Shown: positions 4,126 to 62,706, numbered from the stretch's first letter. The stretch is DNA of 64,000 bases from Candidatus Jorgensenbacteria bacterium (GCA_043807585.1 JAZDFV010000002.1:25581-89580), one strand, 5' to 3'. Numbers and translations: made by a program. The notes: generated from the sequence alone by a model not told the origin.

Positions 4126-4236
4126 CTACGAAATACGAATTTTTTACGAATTTACGAAAACGATTTATAACAGTTTCGTATATTCGTATTATTTCGTATT
4201 TCGTAGCCCTTAGGTATTTTCATATTTCGTAGCGCT
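4126..4236. repeat. TACGAA/TTCGTA word-palindrome element (second copy)
   Basis: About 100 nt are near-identical to 2620-2750 (acgaat.tacgaaaacga...tttcgtatattcgtat..tttcgtatttcgtagccctt.ggta). Confidence 0.8.
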
Positions 4237-9343: not shown

Positions 9344-10201
9344 ATGGCAAGAGTAATCGCCATCTTCAACCAGAAGGGGGGCGTGGGGAAAACTACGACC
9401 TCCATGAACCTCTCCGCGTACCTCGCGATGCGCGGCAAGAAAACGCTCCTCATTGATTTTGATCCGCAGTTCAACGCGACCATCGGCCTCGGGGTCACGC
9501 ATGCGCCGGACGAGACCGTCTACCACGCGCTCCTCGCGGGGCAGGACGTGGAGCGGGTGGTGAAACCCACCTATCTCACCCACTTCCACTTGGCGCCCTC
9601 CTCTGCGGACCTCGCGGGAGCACTTATAGAACTCGTTTATCTCCCGGACCGCGAGCAGTATCTCCAACACTTTGTGGAGAAGGTACGCGACCGCTACGAT
9701 TTCATTTTTATCGATCTTGGGCCCAACCTAAACCTCCTCACGGTGAACGGTCTTGTGGCGGCCGACGAGGTCATCGCTCCCATCCAGTGCGAGTATTTCA
9801 GCTTGGAGGGATTGAGCCAGCTCCTCCAAACCATCACCCTCGTGAGGGAGAATCTGGAGCATCCGCTTAAAGTCACGGGAGCGCTCCTCACTATGTACGA
9901 CAAACGGGAACGCCACTCCCGTGAGATCGCGCGCGAGGTGCGGCGGCGTTTCCCGCACAAAGTATTTGATGTGGAAATCCCGCGCTCGGTGGCGCTCGCG
10001 GAGGCACCCCACTACAAGAAACCAATCATGCTCTATGCGCCGCTCTCGCCCGGCGCCTTGGCCTATGAGGCGCTTGCCGATGAGGTGTTGCGGGAGGCGT
10101 ACGGTGTTCCCACGGCGGGGAGCGTACCGCCCGCGCCACCCATGCCAGCGGATTATCCACAATATCCCCGACTTGACCCCGTTAGAGACAGCCCGCCCTA
10201 A
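9344..10201 (+). CDS. parA: ParA/Soj chromosome-partitioning ATPase
   Basis: The ORF carries a deviant Walker A (NQKGGVGKTTT) and ParA-family sequence. The start was taken at MARVIAIF. Confidence 0.85.
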   Translation: MARVIAIFNQKGGVGKTTTSMNLSAYLAMRGKKTLLIDFDPQFNATIGLGVTHAPDETVYHALLAGQDVERVVKPTYLTHFHLAPSSADLAGALIELVYLPDREQYLQHFVEKVRDRYDFIFIDLGPNLNLLTVNGLVAADEVIAPIQCEYFSLEGLSQLLQTITLVRENLEHPLKVTGALLTMYDKRERHSREIAREVRRRFPHKVFDVEIPRSVALAEAPHYKKPIMLYAPLSPGALAYEALADEVLREAYGVPTAGSVPPAPPMPADYPQYPRLDPVRDSPP

Positions 10202-10247
10202 GGGTCCTTTGGACCGCGCTTGCGCGCGGGCGCGGTCTCTAACGGGG
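10177..10247. repeat. CCGTTAG-TIR element copy A
   Basis: ccccgttagagac ... gtctctaacgggg is a perfect 13-bp TIR enclosing a GC-rich palindromic core. Confidence 0.8.
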
Positions 10248-10780
10248 TTGACCCCACATACAACTTGATTAGGTGAGGGGTTGACCACTTTTTCTAATCA
10301 TTTATTATTGTATTCGGCTCGCGTTGATGTGGGTGCTTTTGCAGGGGGCGGCGCATCCGGCCGGTGCGTAGTTCACTGCGGGGCGTTCAATAAAACGCGG
10401 ACCCGCGTGTATACACGTGCGCTAAGACAGAGGAAAGTTGGCGGCACGCGCGCGGGGCACTACTTCACATTCCGAGTTGCTCTTTATATTTCTTTTATTT
10501 TAGAACCTCGGAATGATAAACGAAGGAACGCACCGTGCACGGGCGGCTATACGCCTCTGTTTTAGTTTCCGTTGCTGGACCAAAAATCCCCATGGTGTGG
10601 GGATTTTTGCTGTCAGCAACAGGACCCAGCACCAATTTCGCCGTAGCCCCCGGTAAATTGTGTTTTATGAATTGATTGCGGGTCGCGCTCGCGGCGCGCG
10701 CGTGCCGTATAGGCACACCCCGTTGTGGGCGAAGCGCGTCGCTGCTACGCACTCCGCGAAATTGGTGCTGTGGTGCAGAC

Positions 10781-10796
10781 GGGATATAATAAACTC
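10781..10796 (+). promoter_or_regulatory. putative -10 element (tataat) 7 nt upstream of the parB start
   Basis: The sequence reads gggatataataaactcATG. Confidence 0.4.
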
Positions 10797-11816: not shown

Positions 11817-13156
11817 CCTCTCGCGCATCATTCACCCTCACCTGCCCGCTTCGCCTTGCGAAGCAAGGCGGGCGGGTTGAGCCCCGCAAAGGTTTTACCT
11901 TGATAGAGCTCCTCGTGGTCATCGCCATTCTTGGCACCATCGCCGTGGCCGTGGTTTTAGTCATCAACCCCGCCGAGCTTATCAAGCAGGCGCGGGACTC
12001 GACCCGCCTCGAGGACCTTGGAACCATCAATCGTATCCTCGGTCTCTTCCAGGCCGACCAAGTGGATGCCTTCATGGGCACCTCCTCAATCGTATACGTC
12101 TCGGTCCCCGATACCTCCGCCACCTGCGTGAACCTCGGCCTCCCGACGCTTCCCAGTGGTTGGAGCTACGCCTGTGCCCCCACGAGCACCCTTCAGAAGG
12201 CGGACGGCACGGGCTGGATTCCTGTGAATCTCACCGCCTTCTCCGCTGGTTCCCCCCTCTCCAAGTTCCCCGTGGACCCCGTGAACGCTACCTCCACGGG
12301 CGAATACTATGCCTACGTCACTGGCTCATCTTGGGAACTGACGGCTTTTCTCAAGTCCGACAAATACAAAATGGGCGGTGGGAGTGATAAAGCCAGCAAA
12401 GACAGTGGCCAACACCCCGAGCTCTATGAACTTGGCTCCACTCTCAAACTCACCCCGGTCACAAGAGACCCTTCTTTGGTCGGGTACTGGAAGCTTGATG
12501 AAACGAGCGGTACCCTCTATGACACATCTGGCCACGGGAACAACGGCACGCAATCGGGGGGTGTAACCTACGGCGCGACCGGCAAGGTGGGGAACGCTTT
12601 GAGTTTTGATGGGGTGGATGATTATGTTTCTACGATCCTCTCGCCGCCATCAACAGTTCCTGTGTCGGTTCTTCTCTGGATTTACCCCACTGACAATACT
12701 GTGTCTCATTGTGTTGTTTCTCGTCCCCCCGCTGGTTGGTTTCCCCTCTATGGGGTTTGTCCATATTTATCAACAAATGAAGTATATAACTATACTAACG
12801 GATTATACGGTCTATATCTACAGACGACGGAATCCTACGGCGCTGCTATGCGTGTTACTTCAAACGTTTCACCGCCCAACAACACTTGGAGTCAGGTGGG
12901 ATTTACCTATGACGGGAGTAGTTTCACCTTGTTTTACAACGGTCAAGCTACTGGGAAAACGCTTTGGTGCAAGACAGGGGGATGCAATGAGAATCAAAAC
13001 TATTTGAGTATCTCAGGTTCTCAGACACATTCTTTGGGTAAAGCAAATGATGCCTGGAAGTCAAACCTTTTCCAAGGCAGTATCGACGACATCCGTATCT
13101 ATAATCGTGCCCTCTCCGCGGCTGAAATTAGTGCTATTTACAGTGCCACGCAATAG
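11813..13156 (+). CDS. type IV pilin-like protein with C-terminal LamG/ConA-like lectin domain (copy 1)
   Basis: It has a prepilin leader (RKGFTLIELLVVIAIL) and a C-terminal LamG-like region (FDGVDDYV...IDDIRIYNRALSAAEISAIY). ATGA overlaps the parB stop. Confidence 0.75.
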   Translation: MTSRASFTLTCPLRLAKQGGRVEPRKGFTLIELLVVIAILGTIAVAVVLVINPAELIKQARDSTRLEDLGTINRILGLFQADQVDAFMGTSSIVYVSVPDTSATCVNLGLPTLPSGWSYACAPTSTLQKADGTGWIPVNLTAFSAGSPLSKFPVDPVNATSTGEYYAYVTGSSWELTAFLKSDKYKMGGGSDKASKDSGQHPELYELGSTLKLTPVTRDPSLVGYWKLDETSGTLYDTSGHGNNGTQSGGVTYGATGKVGNALSFDGVDDYVSTILSPPSTVPVSVLLWIYPTDNTVSHCVVSRPPAGWFPLYGVCPYLSTNEVYNYTNGLYGLYLQTTESYGAAMRVTSNVSPPNNTWSQVGFTYDGSSFTLFYNGQATGKTLWCKTGGCNENQNYLSISGSQTHSLGKANDAWKSNLFQGSIDDIRIYNRALSAAEISAIYSATQ

Positions 13157-13178: not shown

Positions 13179-14384
13179 ATGACCTCTTGCGCATCATTCA
13201 CCCTCATAGAGCTCCTCGTCGTGATAGCGATCCTGGGGGTCTTGGCCACAGTCGTCATCCTCGTCATCAACCCCGCCGAGCTCATCAAGCAGGCGCGGGA
13301 CTCGACCCGCCTCGAGGACCTTGGAACCATCAATCGTATCCTCGGTCTCTTCCAGGCCGACCAAGTGGATGCCTTCATGGGCACCTCCTCAATCGTATAC
13401 GCCTCGGTCCCCGATACCTCCGCCACCTGCGTGAACCTCGGCCTCCCGACGCTTCCCAGTGGTTGGAGCTACGCCTGTGCCCCCACGAGCACCCTTCAGA
13501 AGGCGGACGGCACGGGCTGGATTCCTGTGAATCTTACCGCCTTCTCCGCTGGTTCCCCCCTCTCCAAGTTCCCCGTGGACCCCGTGAACACCACCTCCAC
13601 GAGCCAGTACTACACCTATGTAACGGGGGGGAGTTGGGAGCTGACCGCAGTCACCGAATCCTCAAAGTATGCTTCCAAATCCTCATCTGATGGCGGGGTA
13701 GACCCCGCCATGCTTGAGGTAGGGTCCGATCCTGGACTCGATCTCTCGCCCTTCGCCCATGGGATGGTGGGGTATTGGATGTTTGATGAGACGGGCACGA
13801 CCGCCAATGACAGCTCGGGTTATGCAAACACTGGCACCATGTATTCATCTTCAACTATCTCCGACTTACATACTTCTTCTAATTGTAAAGCTGGAAGTTG
13901 TGTGAGTCTTGATGGGACAGATGATTATGTGAGAATTCCAACGCTAGGGCCTTATGGTAGCTTCACATACCTTGCATGGATAAAATCAACAAATATTAAC
14001 AGTCCTTCTACACAACCTATTATTCATGGTCCCTCTGAAGGATGGAATAGTTTTAATATTAACTCCTCGAAATTAAGATATGGTAGTTATGGTGGTGTTG
14101 GGTGCGGCGGTGCAAACTCATTCAGCAATACCTCTCTTGCATCTAATACATCTTATTTTGTCGCAATGACCTATAACAGGAACGGACAATGGCAATCCTT
14201 TATTAATGGAGCTCTTGACAGTAGTACCAACCATAATTGTTCTCCAGGGTCAGGAGTATACGATATCGGCTCTGCAAGTAGCTACTCAGCACAAAAGTTT
14301 TATGGGATCATCGACGACGTCCGCATCTACAACAGGGCACTATCGGCATCAGAAATTAGCGCTATTTACAATGCAACGCAATAA
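13179..14384 (+). CDS. type IV pilin-like protein with divergent C-terminal LamG-like domain (copy 2)
   Basis: The N-terminal roughly 140 codons are near-identical to copy 1 at nucleotide level, and the C-terminal half is different. Confidence 0.75.
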   Translation: MTSCASFTLIELLVVIAILGVLATVVILVINPAELIKQARDSTRLEDLGTINRILGLFQADQVDAFMGTSSIVYASVPDTSATCVNLGLPTLPSGWSYACAPTSTLQKADGTGWIPVNLTAFSAGSPLSKFPVDPVNTTSTSQYYTYVTGGSWELTAVTESSKYASKSSSDGGVDPAMLEVGSDPGLDLSPFAHGMVGYWMFDETGTTANDSSGYANTGTMYSSSTISDLHTSSNCKAGSCVSLDGTDDYVRIPTLGPYGSFTYLAWIKSTNINSPSTQPIIHGPSEGWNSFNINSSKLRYGSYGGVGCGGANSFSNTSLASNTSYFVAMTYNRNGQWQSFINGALDSSTNHNCSPGSGVYDIGSASSYSAQKFYGIIDDVRIYNRALSASEISAIYNATQ

Positions 14385-25440: not shown

Positions 25441-25518
25441 GTACACCCCGTTAGAGACAAGCCGCCCCTTGGCGGCTGTAGCCCCGCCTTTGGCATGGCG
25501 GTCTCTAACGGGGTACAC
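25441..25518. repeat. CCGTTAG-TIR element copy B
   Basis: gtacaccccgttagagac ... gtctctaacggggtacac is a perfect 18-bp TIR. Confidence 0.8.
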
Positions 25519-55878: not shown

Positions 55879-56310
55879 AAAATCACGTGCAAAAAAGTGA
55901 AGATGACCCAGGTCTGGAAAACAGACCGCGTGGTGCCGGTCACGGTACTCAAGGTGGAACCATCCGCAAGCGAAGGGATATTCGACGCGCTCAAAGAAGG
56001 GGCGCGTGTTCGTGTTTCCGGCGTGAGCAAAGGAAAGGGATTCCAAGGCGTGGTGAAGCGGCACGGGTTCCACGGCGGCCCCAAGTCCCACGGCCAGAAG
56101 GATCGTCTCCGCGCACCGGGCTCGATCGGTCCCACCGCCCCGCAGCGGGTGCTCCCCGGGCGGAAGATGGCAGGCCACATGGGGGCGCGGAAAGTCACGG
56201 TGCGGAATCTTGTGGTGGCGGAGGTGCACCCCGAGGAACGGTTGGTGTTCGTGCGTGGAGCGGTGCCGGGGGCGCGCGGTACTAAAGTAGAAATGAGAAC
56301 CGCAGAGTAG
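55876..56310 (+). CDS. rplC: 50S ribosomal protein L3 (short form)
   Basis: It is an L3 sequence shortened to 144 aa (KKVKMTQVW...[14 protein letters not shown]). Confidence 0.9.
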
Positions 56311-56462
56311 AAAATTGAAATTTGAGTCCAACCCATAAAAATTCCAAATGACAAATTCCAAATCTCAAATAATATCCAATAGCCTAAATTCCAAACTTTT
56401 CGGAGGTTGGTATTTGAGATTTGGTATTTATTTGTTATTTGGTGCTTGGAATTTGAGATTTC
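56311..56462. repeat. CCAAAT/ATTTGG word-palindrome element (copy upstream of rplD)
   Basis: aaattccaaatgacaaattccaaatctcaaat ... ggtatttgagatttggtatttatttgttatttggtgcttggaatttgagatttc. Confidence 0.75.
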
Positions 56463-57093: not shown

Positions 57094-57124
57094 TTTTTCA
57101 TGATCATGAATCCCGTTAGAGACA

Positions 57125-57235
57125 ACTAAGATACCTACCTATGCAACTCCATATTTATAAACACAAAACATTAATTAGCAGCGAAAGGGCCGTGGCTATT
57201 ACGGTCGCCTATGGCGACCTGTCTCTAACGGGATG
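57125..57235. repeat. CCGTTAG-TIR element copy E whose right TIR contains the rplW start codon
   Basis: catgaatcccgttagagaca ... tgtctctaacgggATGaaa. Confidence 0.8.
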
Positions 57236-57604
57236 AAACTCTTCTCCCGAACCAAAAAAGAGGAAAAGAAGCCGGCGGTGACTGCGGCGCCCGCGGCACC
57301 GGCATTGCGCGGCGAGCACGCCCAGCCGCTCGAAGGGTTTTCCCCGGTCCAGCGCCCCTATGTGAGTGAGAAGACGCACGGGCTCGAGCGACACCGCGCG
57401 TACGCGTTCCTGATAAACCCTTCAGCGAACAAGGAGATGATTAAGCGGTATGTGGAGGAGCGTTATAAAGTGAACGTGGAACACGTGAACATCACCAGCA
57501 TTGCCTCAAAGGCAAAGCAGTTCCGGGGGCGCGTCCATCACGTCGGCAAGCGGAAAAAGGCCATCGTGCGGGTCCGCGAGGGACAGCGTATAGAAATTTC
57601 GTAA
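57233..57604 (+). CDS. rplW: 50S ribosomal protein L23 (N-terminally extended)
   Basis: An L23 core follows an Ala/Pro-rich N-terminal stretch of about 30 aa. Confidence 0.9.
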   Translation: MKLFSRTKKEEKKPAVTAAPAAPALRGEHAQPLEGFSPVQRPYVSEKTHGLERHRAYAFLINPSANKEMIKRYVEERYKVNVEHVNITSIASKAKQFRGRVHHVGKRKKAIVRVREGQRIEIS

Positions 57605-57650: not shown

Positions 57651-57687
57651 CTCGACTGAGCTCGGCCGAACGTCCCACAAAACCTTA

Positions 57688-57790
57688 CCCAGCACATAAA
57701 AGTATGAAAACATCAACCAATCTTAAAGTAATTACTTCTCGATTGAACGATTTGTACCAAGAAAGTCGCTTGGTTACTTTTATGTGCTGG
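57688..57790. repeat. CAGCACATAAA-TIR element R1 (about 103 nt, TIR cccagcacataaaagta / tacttttatgtgctggg)
   Basis: There are six copies in the r-protein operon spacers (57688, 59087, 60742, 61355, 62013 and 63592). R1, R2 and R4 are near-identical. Confidence 0.85.
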
Positions 57791-57852
57791 GTGCTCAAAT
57801 TTTCAGCAAAATTTAGCATCGCCTTCGGCTCGCAAATTTTGGTAAATTTGGC

Positions 57853-59030: not shown

Positions 59031-59086
59031 GGGCTTTGTCTAAAATTACAAGACGAAATCGCAGGAATTTTAGCAACAAAACCTTA

Positions 59087-59190
59087 CCCAGCACATAAAA
59101 GTATGAAAACATCAACCAATCTTAAAGTAATTACTTCTCGATTGAACGATTTGTACCAAGAAAGTCGCTTGGTTACTTTTATGTGCCGGG
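59087..59190. repeat. CAGCACATAAA-TIR element R2
   Basis: It is near-identical to R1. Its right flank, gtggacattcggctgagctcagtcgaagccctcg, is shared with R6 and, in inverse orientation, with the R1 left flank. Confidence 0.85.
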
Positions 59191-59262
59191 TGGACATTCG
59201 GCTGAGCTCAGTCGAAGCCCTCGGTTTTATAATCGCTCGTAAAACTCGCGAATAAAAACGGC

Positions 59263-59871: not shown

Positions 59872-59980
59872 GACCCCGTTAGATAGCGGTAATAATATGA
59901 AATTTCAATACAAAAATGGAGTATTAGGGATAACAATCGTCGAACCACTCCGAGCGGGTCCGTCCGCATCTAACGGGGTG
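59872..59980. repeat. CCGTTAG-TIR element copy G (between rplV and rpsC)
   Basis: gaccccgttagatagcggtaa ... ccgcatctaacggggtg. Confidence 0.8.
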
Positions 59981-60039
59981 CTCAAATTTATGGCGGAATA
60001 TGACTTCGCCTTCGGCTCGTAAATTTCGATAAATTTGGC

Positions 60040-60720
60040 ATGGCACAAAAAATAAATCCAACAACTTTCCGATTAGGCATTACCATCCCGTGGCGGAGCC
60101 GCTGGTTCTTCAAGCGGAGCCTCCGGTTTTTCCTTGAGGAGGATTACCTTATCCGCGAACTGATCCGCGAGAAGATTCTCGAGGCCGGTATCGCGGGGAT
60201 CGAGATTGAGCGGACCGCCGACGCCATCCGCGTGAGCATCCGCGCGAGCCGCCCCGGCCTCATCATCGGGCGCGGCGGCAAGGGCATTGACGAAATTCGC
60301 AAACTCCTGGAAAAAGAGATCCGCGCGCTCCGACAAAAAAACCGTATGACGCGCCCCTTCGCGCTCCACTTGAACGTGGAGGAGCTGAAGCGCACCGAGA
60401 TATCCGCCCCGGTGGTAGCCCAGCAGATCGCTTTCGATCTTGAGAAACGGCTCCCATACCGCCGCGTGATGAAGCGGCATCTCGAGCTCATGATGCAGAA
60501 CCGCGAGGTGAAGGGGGCAAAGATTAAGTTGAGCGGACGGCTGAATGGAGCCGAGATTTCGAGGACTGACTGGCTTGCCAAAGGCAAAATGCCTCTCCAA
60601 ACCCTCCGCGCGAACGTGGATTACGGCGAGGCGACCGCGTTCAACTCCTACGGGACCGTGGGTGTAAAGACGTGGATCTATAAGGGAGACATATTCTCAG
60701 AAAAACCCCACGAGCGGTAG
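60040..60720 (+). CDS. rpsC: 30S ribosomal protein S3
   Basis: The S3 sequence is present. Confidence 0.95.
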   Translation: MAQKINPTTFRLGITIPWRSRWFFKRSLRFFLEEDYLIRELIREKILEAGIAGIEIERTADAIRVSIRASRPGLIIGRGGKGIDEIRKLLEKEIRALRQKNRMTRPFALHLNVEELKRTEISAPVVAQQIAFDLEKRLPYRRVMKRHLELMMQNREVKGAKIKLSGRLNGAEISRTDWLAKGKMPLQTLRANVDYGEATAFNSYGTVGVKTWIYKGDIFSEKPHER

Positions 60721-60741
60721 TGAGCGTCGGTTTTTCGAGAA

Positions 60742-60845
60742 CCCAGCACATAAAAGTATGAAAATATCAACTGATTTTAAATTAATTATTTCTGTGTCAA
60801 ATGGCTTGTACCAAGAAGGTCGCTTGGTTACTTTTACGTGCTGGG
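60742..60845. repeat. CAGCACATAAA-TIR element R3
   Basis: It is a family copy with a diverged interior. Confidence 0.8.
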
Positions 60846-60887
60846 TGCGCAATTTTATGATTTCGCTGCCGCTCAAATAAAATTGGC

Positions 60888-61298: not shown

Positions 61299-61354
61299 GG
61301 GCTTGGTATGGATTTTCAAGCCGCAGGCGCAGAAAATACATGAACCAAACCTTA

Positions 61355-61458
61355 CCCAGCACATAAAAGTATGAAAACATCAACCAATCTTAAAGCAATT
61401 ACTTCTCGATTGAACGATTTGTACCAAGGAGGTCGCTTGGTTACTTCTATGTGCTGGG
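61355..61458. repeat. CAGCACATAAA-TIR element R4
   Basis: It is near-identical to R1 and R2. Confidence 0.85.
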
Positions 61459-61519
61459 TGCTCGGTTTTATAGCTAAATTTCCGTCGCGTGCTCGCTTGG
61501 AAATTTAGATAAAAACAGC

Positions 61520-62012: not shown

Positions 62013-62116
62013 CCCTGCACATAAATTTATGAACACGGTTTTCAACCAAAAAATGAATAAGATATCGGTCAATCGCTCTGGTTATCGAAAGCGTACGGTT
62101 AAATTTATGTGCGGGG
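62013..62116. repeat. CAGCACATAAA-TIR element R5 (diverged: ccctgcacataaatttatg ... aaatttatgtgcgggg)
   Basis: The TIRs are related and the interior differs. Confidence 0.7.
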
Positions 62117-62186
62117 TGCTCATTGTGGTAGCTGAATATTCTTCGCTACGCAGTGAGCTTCGCTTGAATATTCAGACCACAATGGC

Positions 62187-62552: not shown

Positions 62553-62559
62553 CGCGATG

Positions 62560-62700
62560 CAAAACTATAAATTCATGCGAATCTACAAATATGATACGAA
62601 TATATCCGCATAAATCCGTTTCAATCCGCATAAATCCGTGTTTAGTAAATCAGCGTAAATCAGCGTCCAATAAATCAGCATCAATCCGCGTGTTTAGTAA
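62560..62700. repeat. direct-repeat word array upstream of rplX (ccgcataaatccg x2, aaatcagcgt x2, gtgtttagtaaa x2)
   Basis: Direct repeats of several words are present rather than an inverted arrangement. Confidence 0.6.
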
Positions 62701-62706
62701 AACAAT

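Follow-up and report, generated by a model that had tools for sequence, protein, structure and literature searches.

A probable family of MITE-like hairpin elements in CPR bacteria that rebuild the start codons at which they insert

The window analysed here is a stretch of 64,000 nt from a Candidatus Jorgensenbacteria bacterium (GCA_043807585.1 JAZDFV010000002.1:25581-89580). Its + strand carries rpoC, parA/parB, pilin-like genes, groEL, thyX, dnaG, rpoD, alaS and comEC, together with a contiguous str and S10 operon (S12-S7-EF-G-EF-Tu-S10-L3-L4-L23-L2-S19-L22-S3-L16-L29-S17-L14). The encoded ParB has 100% identity to an NCBI protein of a Candidatus Jorgensenbacteria MAG, which places the genome in the Candidate Phyla Radiation (CPR/Patescibacteria). 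Ribosomal protein L3 (55876-56310) has only 144 aa, the same length as in the relative L119; bacterial L3 usually has roughly 210 aa. Two adjacent pilin-like genes with N_methyl and Laminin_G_3 domains share a 339-nt stretch at 98.5% identity (11960-12298 and 13263-13601), which suggests a recent duplication or gene conversion. Dispersed in the window are short hairpin elements whose terminal inverted repeats (TIRs) contain the motif CCGTTAG. The original prediction described them as a family of seven copies, A to G, concentrated in the spacers of ribosomal-protein genes. Six of these (A, B, D, E, F and G) proved to be complete hairpins and C has only the right arm; the density is about one copy per 10 kb. 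The concentration was confirmed, since C to G are all in the str/S10 region and only A and B elsewhere. The copies, their target-site duplications (TSDs) and the features within them are as follows.

10177-10247, no strand assigned: copy A, short type, 71 nt including the terminal pair C..G (core CCCG..CGGG at 10178-10246), GC-rich, of the three-way-junction type; TSD TTGA at 10173-10176 and 10248-10251
25446-25513, no strand assigned: copy B, short type, 68 nt, terminal pair C..G (core 25447-25512); TSD TACA at 25442-25445 and 25514-25517
50000-50104, + strand: copy F in the S12/S7 spacer, divergent subfamily (core 50001-50103), arms CCCGTTAGATAGCGG / CCGCATCTAACGGG, without TSD
55590-55602, no strand assigned: copy C, right arm alone (ACTTCTAACGGG+G)
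55752-55871, + strand: short ORF across copy D, 39 codons, from the duplicated original start codon (ATG 55752)
55757-55876, + strand: copy D, long type, 118 nt plus terminal T..A (core 55758-55875); TSD TGAA at 55753-55756 and 55877-55880
55845-55862: gene-proximal hairpin of copy D
57111-57233, + strand: copy E, long type, 121 nt plus terminal T..A (core 57112-57232); TSD TGAA at 57107-57110 and 57234-57237
57141-57236, + strand: short ORF within copy E, 31 codons from ATG 57141
57203-57219: gene-proximal hairpin of copy E, GGTCGCC-TAT-GGCGACC
59874-59978, + strand: copy G in the L22/S3 spacer, of the same subfamily and length as copy F (core 59875-59977), without TSD

The motif CCGTTAG occurs 15 times in the window against 6.0 ± 2.4 expected, a count reached by none of 100 shuffles, and the two-arm pattern CCCGTTAGARAC...GTYTCTAACGGG is found at 4 places (8 strand hits) where 0.00 are expected. 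Two further CCGTTAG matches, at 12795 and 45256 within coding sequence, are probably due to chance. All six complete copies fold considerably better than their shuffled sequences (z -3.1 to -6.7). The span 10177-10247 that had been proposed coincides exactly with copy A, including its 13th terminal base pair; the proposed start of copy E, 57125, was about 14 nt off. Copy A is placed on the -35 box (TTGAC) of a promoter, with parA and parB as its neighbours, and a promoter TTGACC-16-TATTAT follows directly downstream at 10281-10308. The dnaG ATG (25530) lies 18 nt downstream of copy B. Copies D and E each end with an A that is also the first base of a start codon, that of L3 (55876) and that of L23 (57233), respectively. 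The ORF across copy D stops at a TAA within the right arm, 4 nt upstream of the L3 ATG, and the TGA that ends the ORF of copy E overlaps the L23 start (ATGA). No sigma-70 promoter was predicted within copy D or E.

Copies F and G, described earlier as equal in length with like ends and unlike middles, are indeed both 103 nt long, with 80/103 positions identical in an ungapped comparison; their boundaries had been drawn too narrowly, since the similarity runs on past the hairpin on both sides. They have variant arms, CCCGTTAGATAG / GCATCTAACGGG, extended to about 16 bp, and common flanks that consist of AAACC.. on the left and, on the right, a conserved hairpin module of about 65 nt, GTGCTCA...GGC, which ends at the next ATG (that of S7 at 50174 for copy F and that of S3 at 60040 for copy G). 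The same hairpin-plus-module composite is present at S3/L16 in the relative L122. We therefore regard F and G as a divergent, TSD-less subfamily that is kin to the others by its arms and embedded in a larger composite repeat. Copy C is followed on its 3' side by TTGA and then by a 31-nt mini-palindrome itself flanked by TTGA, and represents a remnant or the end of a larger insertion. Mini-palindromes are found at 55603-55641 and 10248-10285 (CCCCACACATAACC/GGTTATGTGTGGGG and CCCCACATAC...GGTGAGGGG), both flanked by TTGA and directly beside the ends of CCGTTAG elements, which suggests repeated insertions into one TTGA target by small relatives with CCC...GGG ends.

Other repeats were observed in the spacers of the window.

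57687-57792, 59086-59192, 60741-60848, 61354-61461 and about 62020-62120: second hairpin family
50105-50173, 57794-57852, 59979-60039, 60849-60887, 61462-61519 and 62121-62186: 'GCTCA...GGC' module, about 40-65 nt
2597-2735, 4126-4221, 50641-50770, 56339-56461 and 62553-62706: low-complexity spacers

The second hairpin family (ACCCAGCACATAAAAG.../...CTTTTATGTGCTGGGT) fills the slot of F and G in other spacers; it is about 106-117 nt long, has arms ACCCAGCACATAAAAGTA / TACTTTTATGTGCTGGGT and no obvious TSD, and occupies five ribosomal-protein spacers. It is absent at S19/L22 in L119, where the spacer has 12 nt, and present at other junctions of that relative. The 'GCTCA...GGC' module ends exactly at the ATG of S7, L2, S3, L16, L29 and L14, and its halves are, by eye, inverted repeats that vary between copies yet remain complementary. 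From the hairpin that precedes the module, ORFs of about 50 codons run up to 0-15 nt before the next gene start or overlap it. Low-complexity tandem and inverted motifs (TACGAAT, AAATTCCAAA, CAGCGTAAAT) fill further spacers, some of them common to several, and the spacers of L119 hold similar, not identical arrays.

The breadth of the family was determined by a scan with the arm pattern, one genome per species, which returned at least 118 loci. The inverted repeat, previously put at about 10 bp, comprises 13 bp, Y-CCCGTTAGARAC / GTYTCTAACGGG-R, of which 12 bp were set by the search pattern; the 13th pair is complementary in 119 of 123 copies, as T..A in 73 and C..G in 43, and the family end reads YCCCGTTAGARAC. 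An exact 4-bp TSD flanks 98 of 137 copies, compared with 0-4 copies in six other registers, and 39 copies have no exact TSD. The most frequent duplications are TGAA/TTCA (45), TTGA/TCAA (15), TGAG/CTCA (10) and TGGA/TCCA (10), followed by a tail of other tetramers, the rarer ones including TACA, CAAA, TCTA and CATA. We discarded a model of a 5-bp TSD plus one further base: only 54 of the 98 copies have the element's last base also in the position 5' of the left repeat, and the ATG/GTG mismatches are systematic. Elements are 64-125 nt long, with clusters at 114-121 and 64-99 nt, and have no transposase ORF. Tandem copies that share a repeat were found in L018, L098 and L042, and nested copies in L059 and L095. 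Among the 80 matches listed, 25 came from Saccharibacteria, 36 from other CPR lineages, 11 from further MAGs, and the remainder carried non-CPR labels (3 Omnitrophota, 1 Elusimicrobiota and 4 Planctomycetota). Identical ends of 12-13 bp recur in dozens of CPR lineages. The arm pattern had no match in IMG/VR viral contigs. A search of open-access literature with sequence and keyword terms did not find a description of the family, which is apparently undescribed so far. Integron attC sites, which have an RYYYAAC core 5' and GTTRRRY 3' and lie beside cassette ORFs and an integrase, were discarded as a match, the order of the core sites here being reversed on both strands (GTTAGAG first, CTCTAAC last) and the context being housekeeping operons.

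A protein-guided scan yielded 80 S10-operon loci of relatives, in which orthologous junctions were compared. The closest of these relatives, L119/L120 (EF-Tu 96% and L4 79% identical to the window), has a clean empty site for copy E at the L4/L23 junction: it reads TTTTTCATGATTATGAAACTC in L119 (longer form, GAAGTAATTTTTCATGATTATGAAACTC), and the window has TTTTTCATGATCATGAA-(T..E..A)-TGAAACTC, or with a longer left flank GAAGTAATTTTTCATGATCATGAA-(T-CCCG...CGGG-A)-TGAAACTC. A sister of copy E occupies a different junction in L119/L120, L23/L2, where it is flush with the L2 ATG. Copy D is absent from the S10/L3 spacer of L119, and so is copy G from its L22/S3 spacer, which consists of unrelated sequence. 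Copies were detected at L4/L23 and L2/S19 in L126 and after L23 in L129; most other relatives have tight S10-operon spacers and no copy. Copy A, present in L199, is missing in L201 (ParB 74% identical), where the empty site reads GCGACTTGACCCCACTG...TATGAT with a single -35 box and a single TTGAC. The filled site in the window and in L199 (ParB 73%) reads TTGA-(A)-TTGA, followed by the mini-palindrome and a third TTGA. Because L199 has retained copy A along with its flank, the family includes old copies, which could be exapted. The more distant L044 has short copies between parA and parB and before groEL, both flush against TTGACA-N17-TAnnnT.

The MITE-like behaviour put forward in the original prediction was thus supported by TSDs (4 bp in A, B, D and E, besides the count given above for the whole family), by presence/absence polymorphism and by further copies at >118 loci in other genomes. 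TSDs, empty orthologous sites and many copies elsewhere leave the proposal of a mobile family standing: the elements are neither present at the same position in all relatives nor confined to this genome. In the same comparison we observed that the parA-parB intergenic region of about 550 nt (10250-10796) is conserved at the nucleotide level in L199 and L201, despite a ParB identity of 73-74%. This region starts at the consensus promoter TTGACC-16-TATTAT, has no Rfam match at E<=10 and is a candidate ncRNA, new or highly divergent, in which the stretch CAGAGGAAAGTTGG recalls P4 of RNase P.

We then consider the position of the copies relative to genes. Among the long copies (at least 100 nt), 62 of 93 have an ORF of 50 codons or more immediately at one side, with the start codon right after CGGG. 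The favoured targets are TGAA, which lies within ATGAA at gene starts, and TTGA, which lies within the -35 hexamer TTGACA. At gene starts the A or G that ends the element and the duplicated TG together form the new start codon, ATG or GTG. The use of the element's last base follows from the copies with a C..G terminal pair, in which the left copy of the target reads ATGxxC and the right one GTGxx; these insertions turn the ATG of the gene into GTG. The original start codon is still found upstream, as a decoy, in 50 of the 62 start-codon copies. Many of the short copies lie on TTGA/C(A), and there the right-hand repeat restores the -35 hexamer TTGACA. The bias toward ribosomal-protein operons is accounted for by insertion at ATGAA start codons.

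The orientation of start-codon copies is almost fixed. Six copies of the short type, compared by eye, lie in both orientations relative to TTGA, and from this we infer that the fixed orientation at start codons is due to selection, not to the chemistry of insertion. Of the 62 start-codon copies, 37 have a GC hairpin of 6-10 bp and one T before the gene-proximal arm, with 23 different stems among them; the distal arm has such a hairpin in 6/62 only, mostly weak. The other start-codon copies mostly belong to a subtype whose distal arm is extended as CGCGGTCGC, an extension that can pair with GCGACC before the proximal arm, and the CGCGGTC-type extension is at the distal arm in every aligned copy of that type. 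A register-matched alignment of 16 hairpins revealed strong covariation: 7 of 7 pairs changed on both sides, 96.4% of the cells were paired, compared with 27-53% in slid controls, and none of 500 shuffles matched. On long copies in full length, RNAalifold detected nothing beyond the closing helix, since stems of unequal length are misaligned by MAFFT. The interiors are otherwise A/T-rich and unalignable between subfamilies. Together with the UGUYUCU downstream of it, the hairpin also resembles a terminator in its score. A dsDNA-binding DDE transposase would have no need of a hairpin that covaries, which speaks for selection acting on RNA or ssDNA.

Long copies at start codons frequently contain a bridging ORF, defined as 15 or more codons from an ATG to the TAA of the right arm (within TAACGGGATG, 4 nt before the gene start) or to a TGA that overlaps the start (ATGA). 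Such ORFs were counted in 42 of 62 copies in the direction of the gene versus 7 of 62 reversed sequences (Fisher p = 1e-10), in a set of phylogenetically non-independent copies for all of which an ATGAAT left flank was assumed, the start codon being truly there in 50/62. With shuffled interiors the count averaged 12.3 and never exceeded 21. Translation of the 42 ORFs would begin at the duplicated old start codon in 20 cases and at an internal ATG in 22, and end at TAA in 30 and at TGA in 12. About one third of the start-codon copies, for instance those of the 'GCGGTGGCC' subfamily, have no bridging ORF, and the peptides are not conserved. Lengths of 114-121 show no obvious mod-3 bias by eye, so that survival is not explained solely by an ORF that begins at the duplicated start codon. 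Many genes of the window have spacers without a Shine-Dalgarno sequence. The S10, spc and str operons depend on translational coupling.

All in all, these results indicate, with a probability that we set at about 0.78, that the copies form a widely distributed family of MITE-like hairpins, DNA transposons that are not autonomous and that rebuild the start-codon signal. Mobility is supported by the empty sites, the TSDs and the tandem and nested copies. The partner enzyme aside, the family has what operationally defines a MITE, being short, bounded by TIRs, flanked by TSDs and polymorphic in insertion. In the mechanism that we propose, a putative trans-acting transposase would make a 4-bp staggered cut, copies would survive mainly where the split signal is rebuilt, and selection at start codons would keep one orientation only. 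The orientation kept would offer an A/U-rich loop and the covarying GC hairpin, 1 nt before the right arm, and usually an ORF of 20-40 codons, from the duplicated old start or an internal ATG, which would terminate either at the right-arm UAA (UAACGGGAUG) or at a UGA that shares bases with the new start (AUGA). Ribosomes on the bridging ORF would unwind the closing helix, in which the A of AUG would otherwise be paired, and termination followed by re-initiation on the gene would keep coupling in operons such as S10/str. Judged from the sequences, coupling through the bridging ORF is plausible, and signal rebuilding probably explains survival within essential ribosomal-protein operons. We offer tentatively, at less than even odds, the fuller account in which horizontal spread across the CPR, signal rebuilding and coupling by ORF and hairpin make insertion near-neutral, and in which the elements are mobilised by an as-yet-unlinked transposase, possibly piggyBac/IS1380-like.

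Copies that arrived by transposition could by now be kept by the host as portable expression cassettes, with the bridging ORF, an attenuator-like hairpin or an RNase III site as their useful part. The enrichment of bridging ORFs, the U-rich tail after the hairpin and an arm sequence extremely conserved across phyla would fit such an exaptation, as would the retention in L199 of copy A, directly upstream of a consensus promoter. However, close relatives do well without the element at the genes in question, the junctions differ between lineages, and identical features are expected from the mere filtering of harmful insertions. We consider it quite unlikely that the elements are mainly such exapted modules.

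Enzymes of the HUH/Y1 type, which would move the elements as ssDNA palindromes by reading the covarying hairpin and insert them by a fixed short target, as in the REP/REPIN-RAYT system or the IS200/IS605-derived PATEs, seem quite improbable. Neither REP/REPIN-RAYT elements nor IS200/IS605 PATEs are known to have target duplications or long perfect TIRs, and here we found 4-bp TSDs of variable sequence, TIRs of 13 bp, both orientations relative to TTGA among the six short copies compared by eye, and no GTAG-type REP signature. These observations outweigh the subterminal hairpin that covaries at one end only, the narrow target range TGAA/TTGA, the near-fixed orientation at ATGAA and the fact that a DDE partner was not found.

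A family of structured RNAs with a conserved closing helix had been named as the alternative at the outset. The closing helix would then be functional in a conserved cis-regulatory or stand-alone RNA (e.g. a ribosomal-protein leader), and the copies would be paralogues of an RNA gene without mobility of the DNA. Strong folds (z -3 to -6.7), the covarying hairpin, the orientation fixed relative to the downstream gene and the retention of copy A in L199 all agree with it, and its grain of truth is that gene-proximal hairpin. As a conserved RNA gene or leader it found no support, as positions are not conserved and Rfam gave no match: at the gathering threshold, Rfam 15 identified one tRNA only in the window and no element, at E<=5 the str/S10 operon region gave chance-level miRNA-like matches only, and at E<=10 nothing relevant was returned around copy A. 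This alternative, which we rate as very improbable, is largely refuted by the empty orthologous sites of close relatives, besides which copies precede unrelated genes, are flanked by variable 4-bp duplications, occur in tandem and nested, and have interiors unalignable between subfamilies.

Under the preferred reading as a non-autonomous transposon family, the elements would depend on an enzyme encoded elsewhere. No transposase domain was detected among the approximately 45 ORFs of the window, and a search of the window and of about 1.5 Mb of sequence from other loci detected neither an autonomous element nor a transposase with the family ends; the stretches enclosed by unpaired arms, or by arm pairs at a spacing of 0.4-4 kb, contain nothing but host genes (FemAB, PTPS, PAP2) or an N-masked gap. 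PiggyBac and its prokaryotic relative IS1380 are DDE transposons that duplicate a 4-bp target, TTAA, and have ends that start with CCC (PMC10813416). The present elements are reminiscent of them in the 4-bp TSD of the T..A type and the CCC ends; they differ in that CCC is preceded by a paired Y..R and in that the target is TGAA/TTGA and not TTAA, and the sequences searched contained no IS1380-like transposase. We take the resemblance as a lead only. Between S10 and L3 (region 54860-55600) we also observed an AT-rich ORF of 161 aa (55061-55546) with no Pfam match, which has a degenerate left arm (CCCGTTATAGAAC at 54879) on one side and the right arm C on the other and may be the cargo of a larger element. 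A TATAAT lies 7 nt upstream of its ATG, and its mRNA may therefore be leaderless.

Correia elements of Neisseria, enterobacterial ERIC/IRU and pneumococcal RUP are transposase-less elements of about 100 nt with perfect TIRs, which form a hairpin when transcribed. They have short TSDs, many dispersed intergenic copies and insertion polymorphism, and are co-transcribed with their neighbours. The family described here resembles them in size, in the lack of a transposase gene, in the hairpin formed by the TIRs, in the short TSD and in its dispersed, polymorphic copies. In contrast to them, it has another TIR sequence, a 4-bp TSD that prefers TGAA/TTGA (that of Correia elements being TA), an exact placement at the start codon or -35 box with the signal rebuilt, and a distribution over a superphylum and not one genus. 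Its orientation-specific hairpin and bridging ORF set it apart from described bacterial MITEs. With REP/REPIN and PATE sequences it has in common that they are hairpin-forming intergenic repeats with a covarying stem and no coding capacity; a TSD and long perfect TIRs are present here and are not known from those families. Rickettsia palindromic elements (RPE) enter ORFs in frame, so that they become a segment of the encoded protein. They are similarly palindromic mobile elements that last at essential genes through an insertion compatible with expression, whereas the present elements are flush with the 5' side of the start codon, which they rebuild.

CPR/Patescibacteria have tiny, gene-dense genomes that are usually described as poor in mobile DNA. 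Here, one hairpin element with like ends is distributed across dozens of CPR lineages and, in the window, found within the most conserved operons. In practical terms, start codons are shifted from ATG to GTG, decoy starts can mislead gene callers, operon spacers are inflated, and the copies offer strain-level markers. The family further points to a putative transposase with a 4-bp TGAA/TTGA target preference. If signal rebuilding and the bridging ORF act as proposed, it would be the transposon's own sequence that makes insertion at essential genes tolerable.
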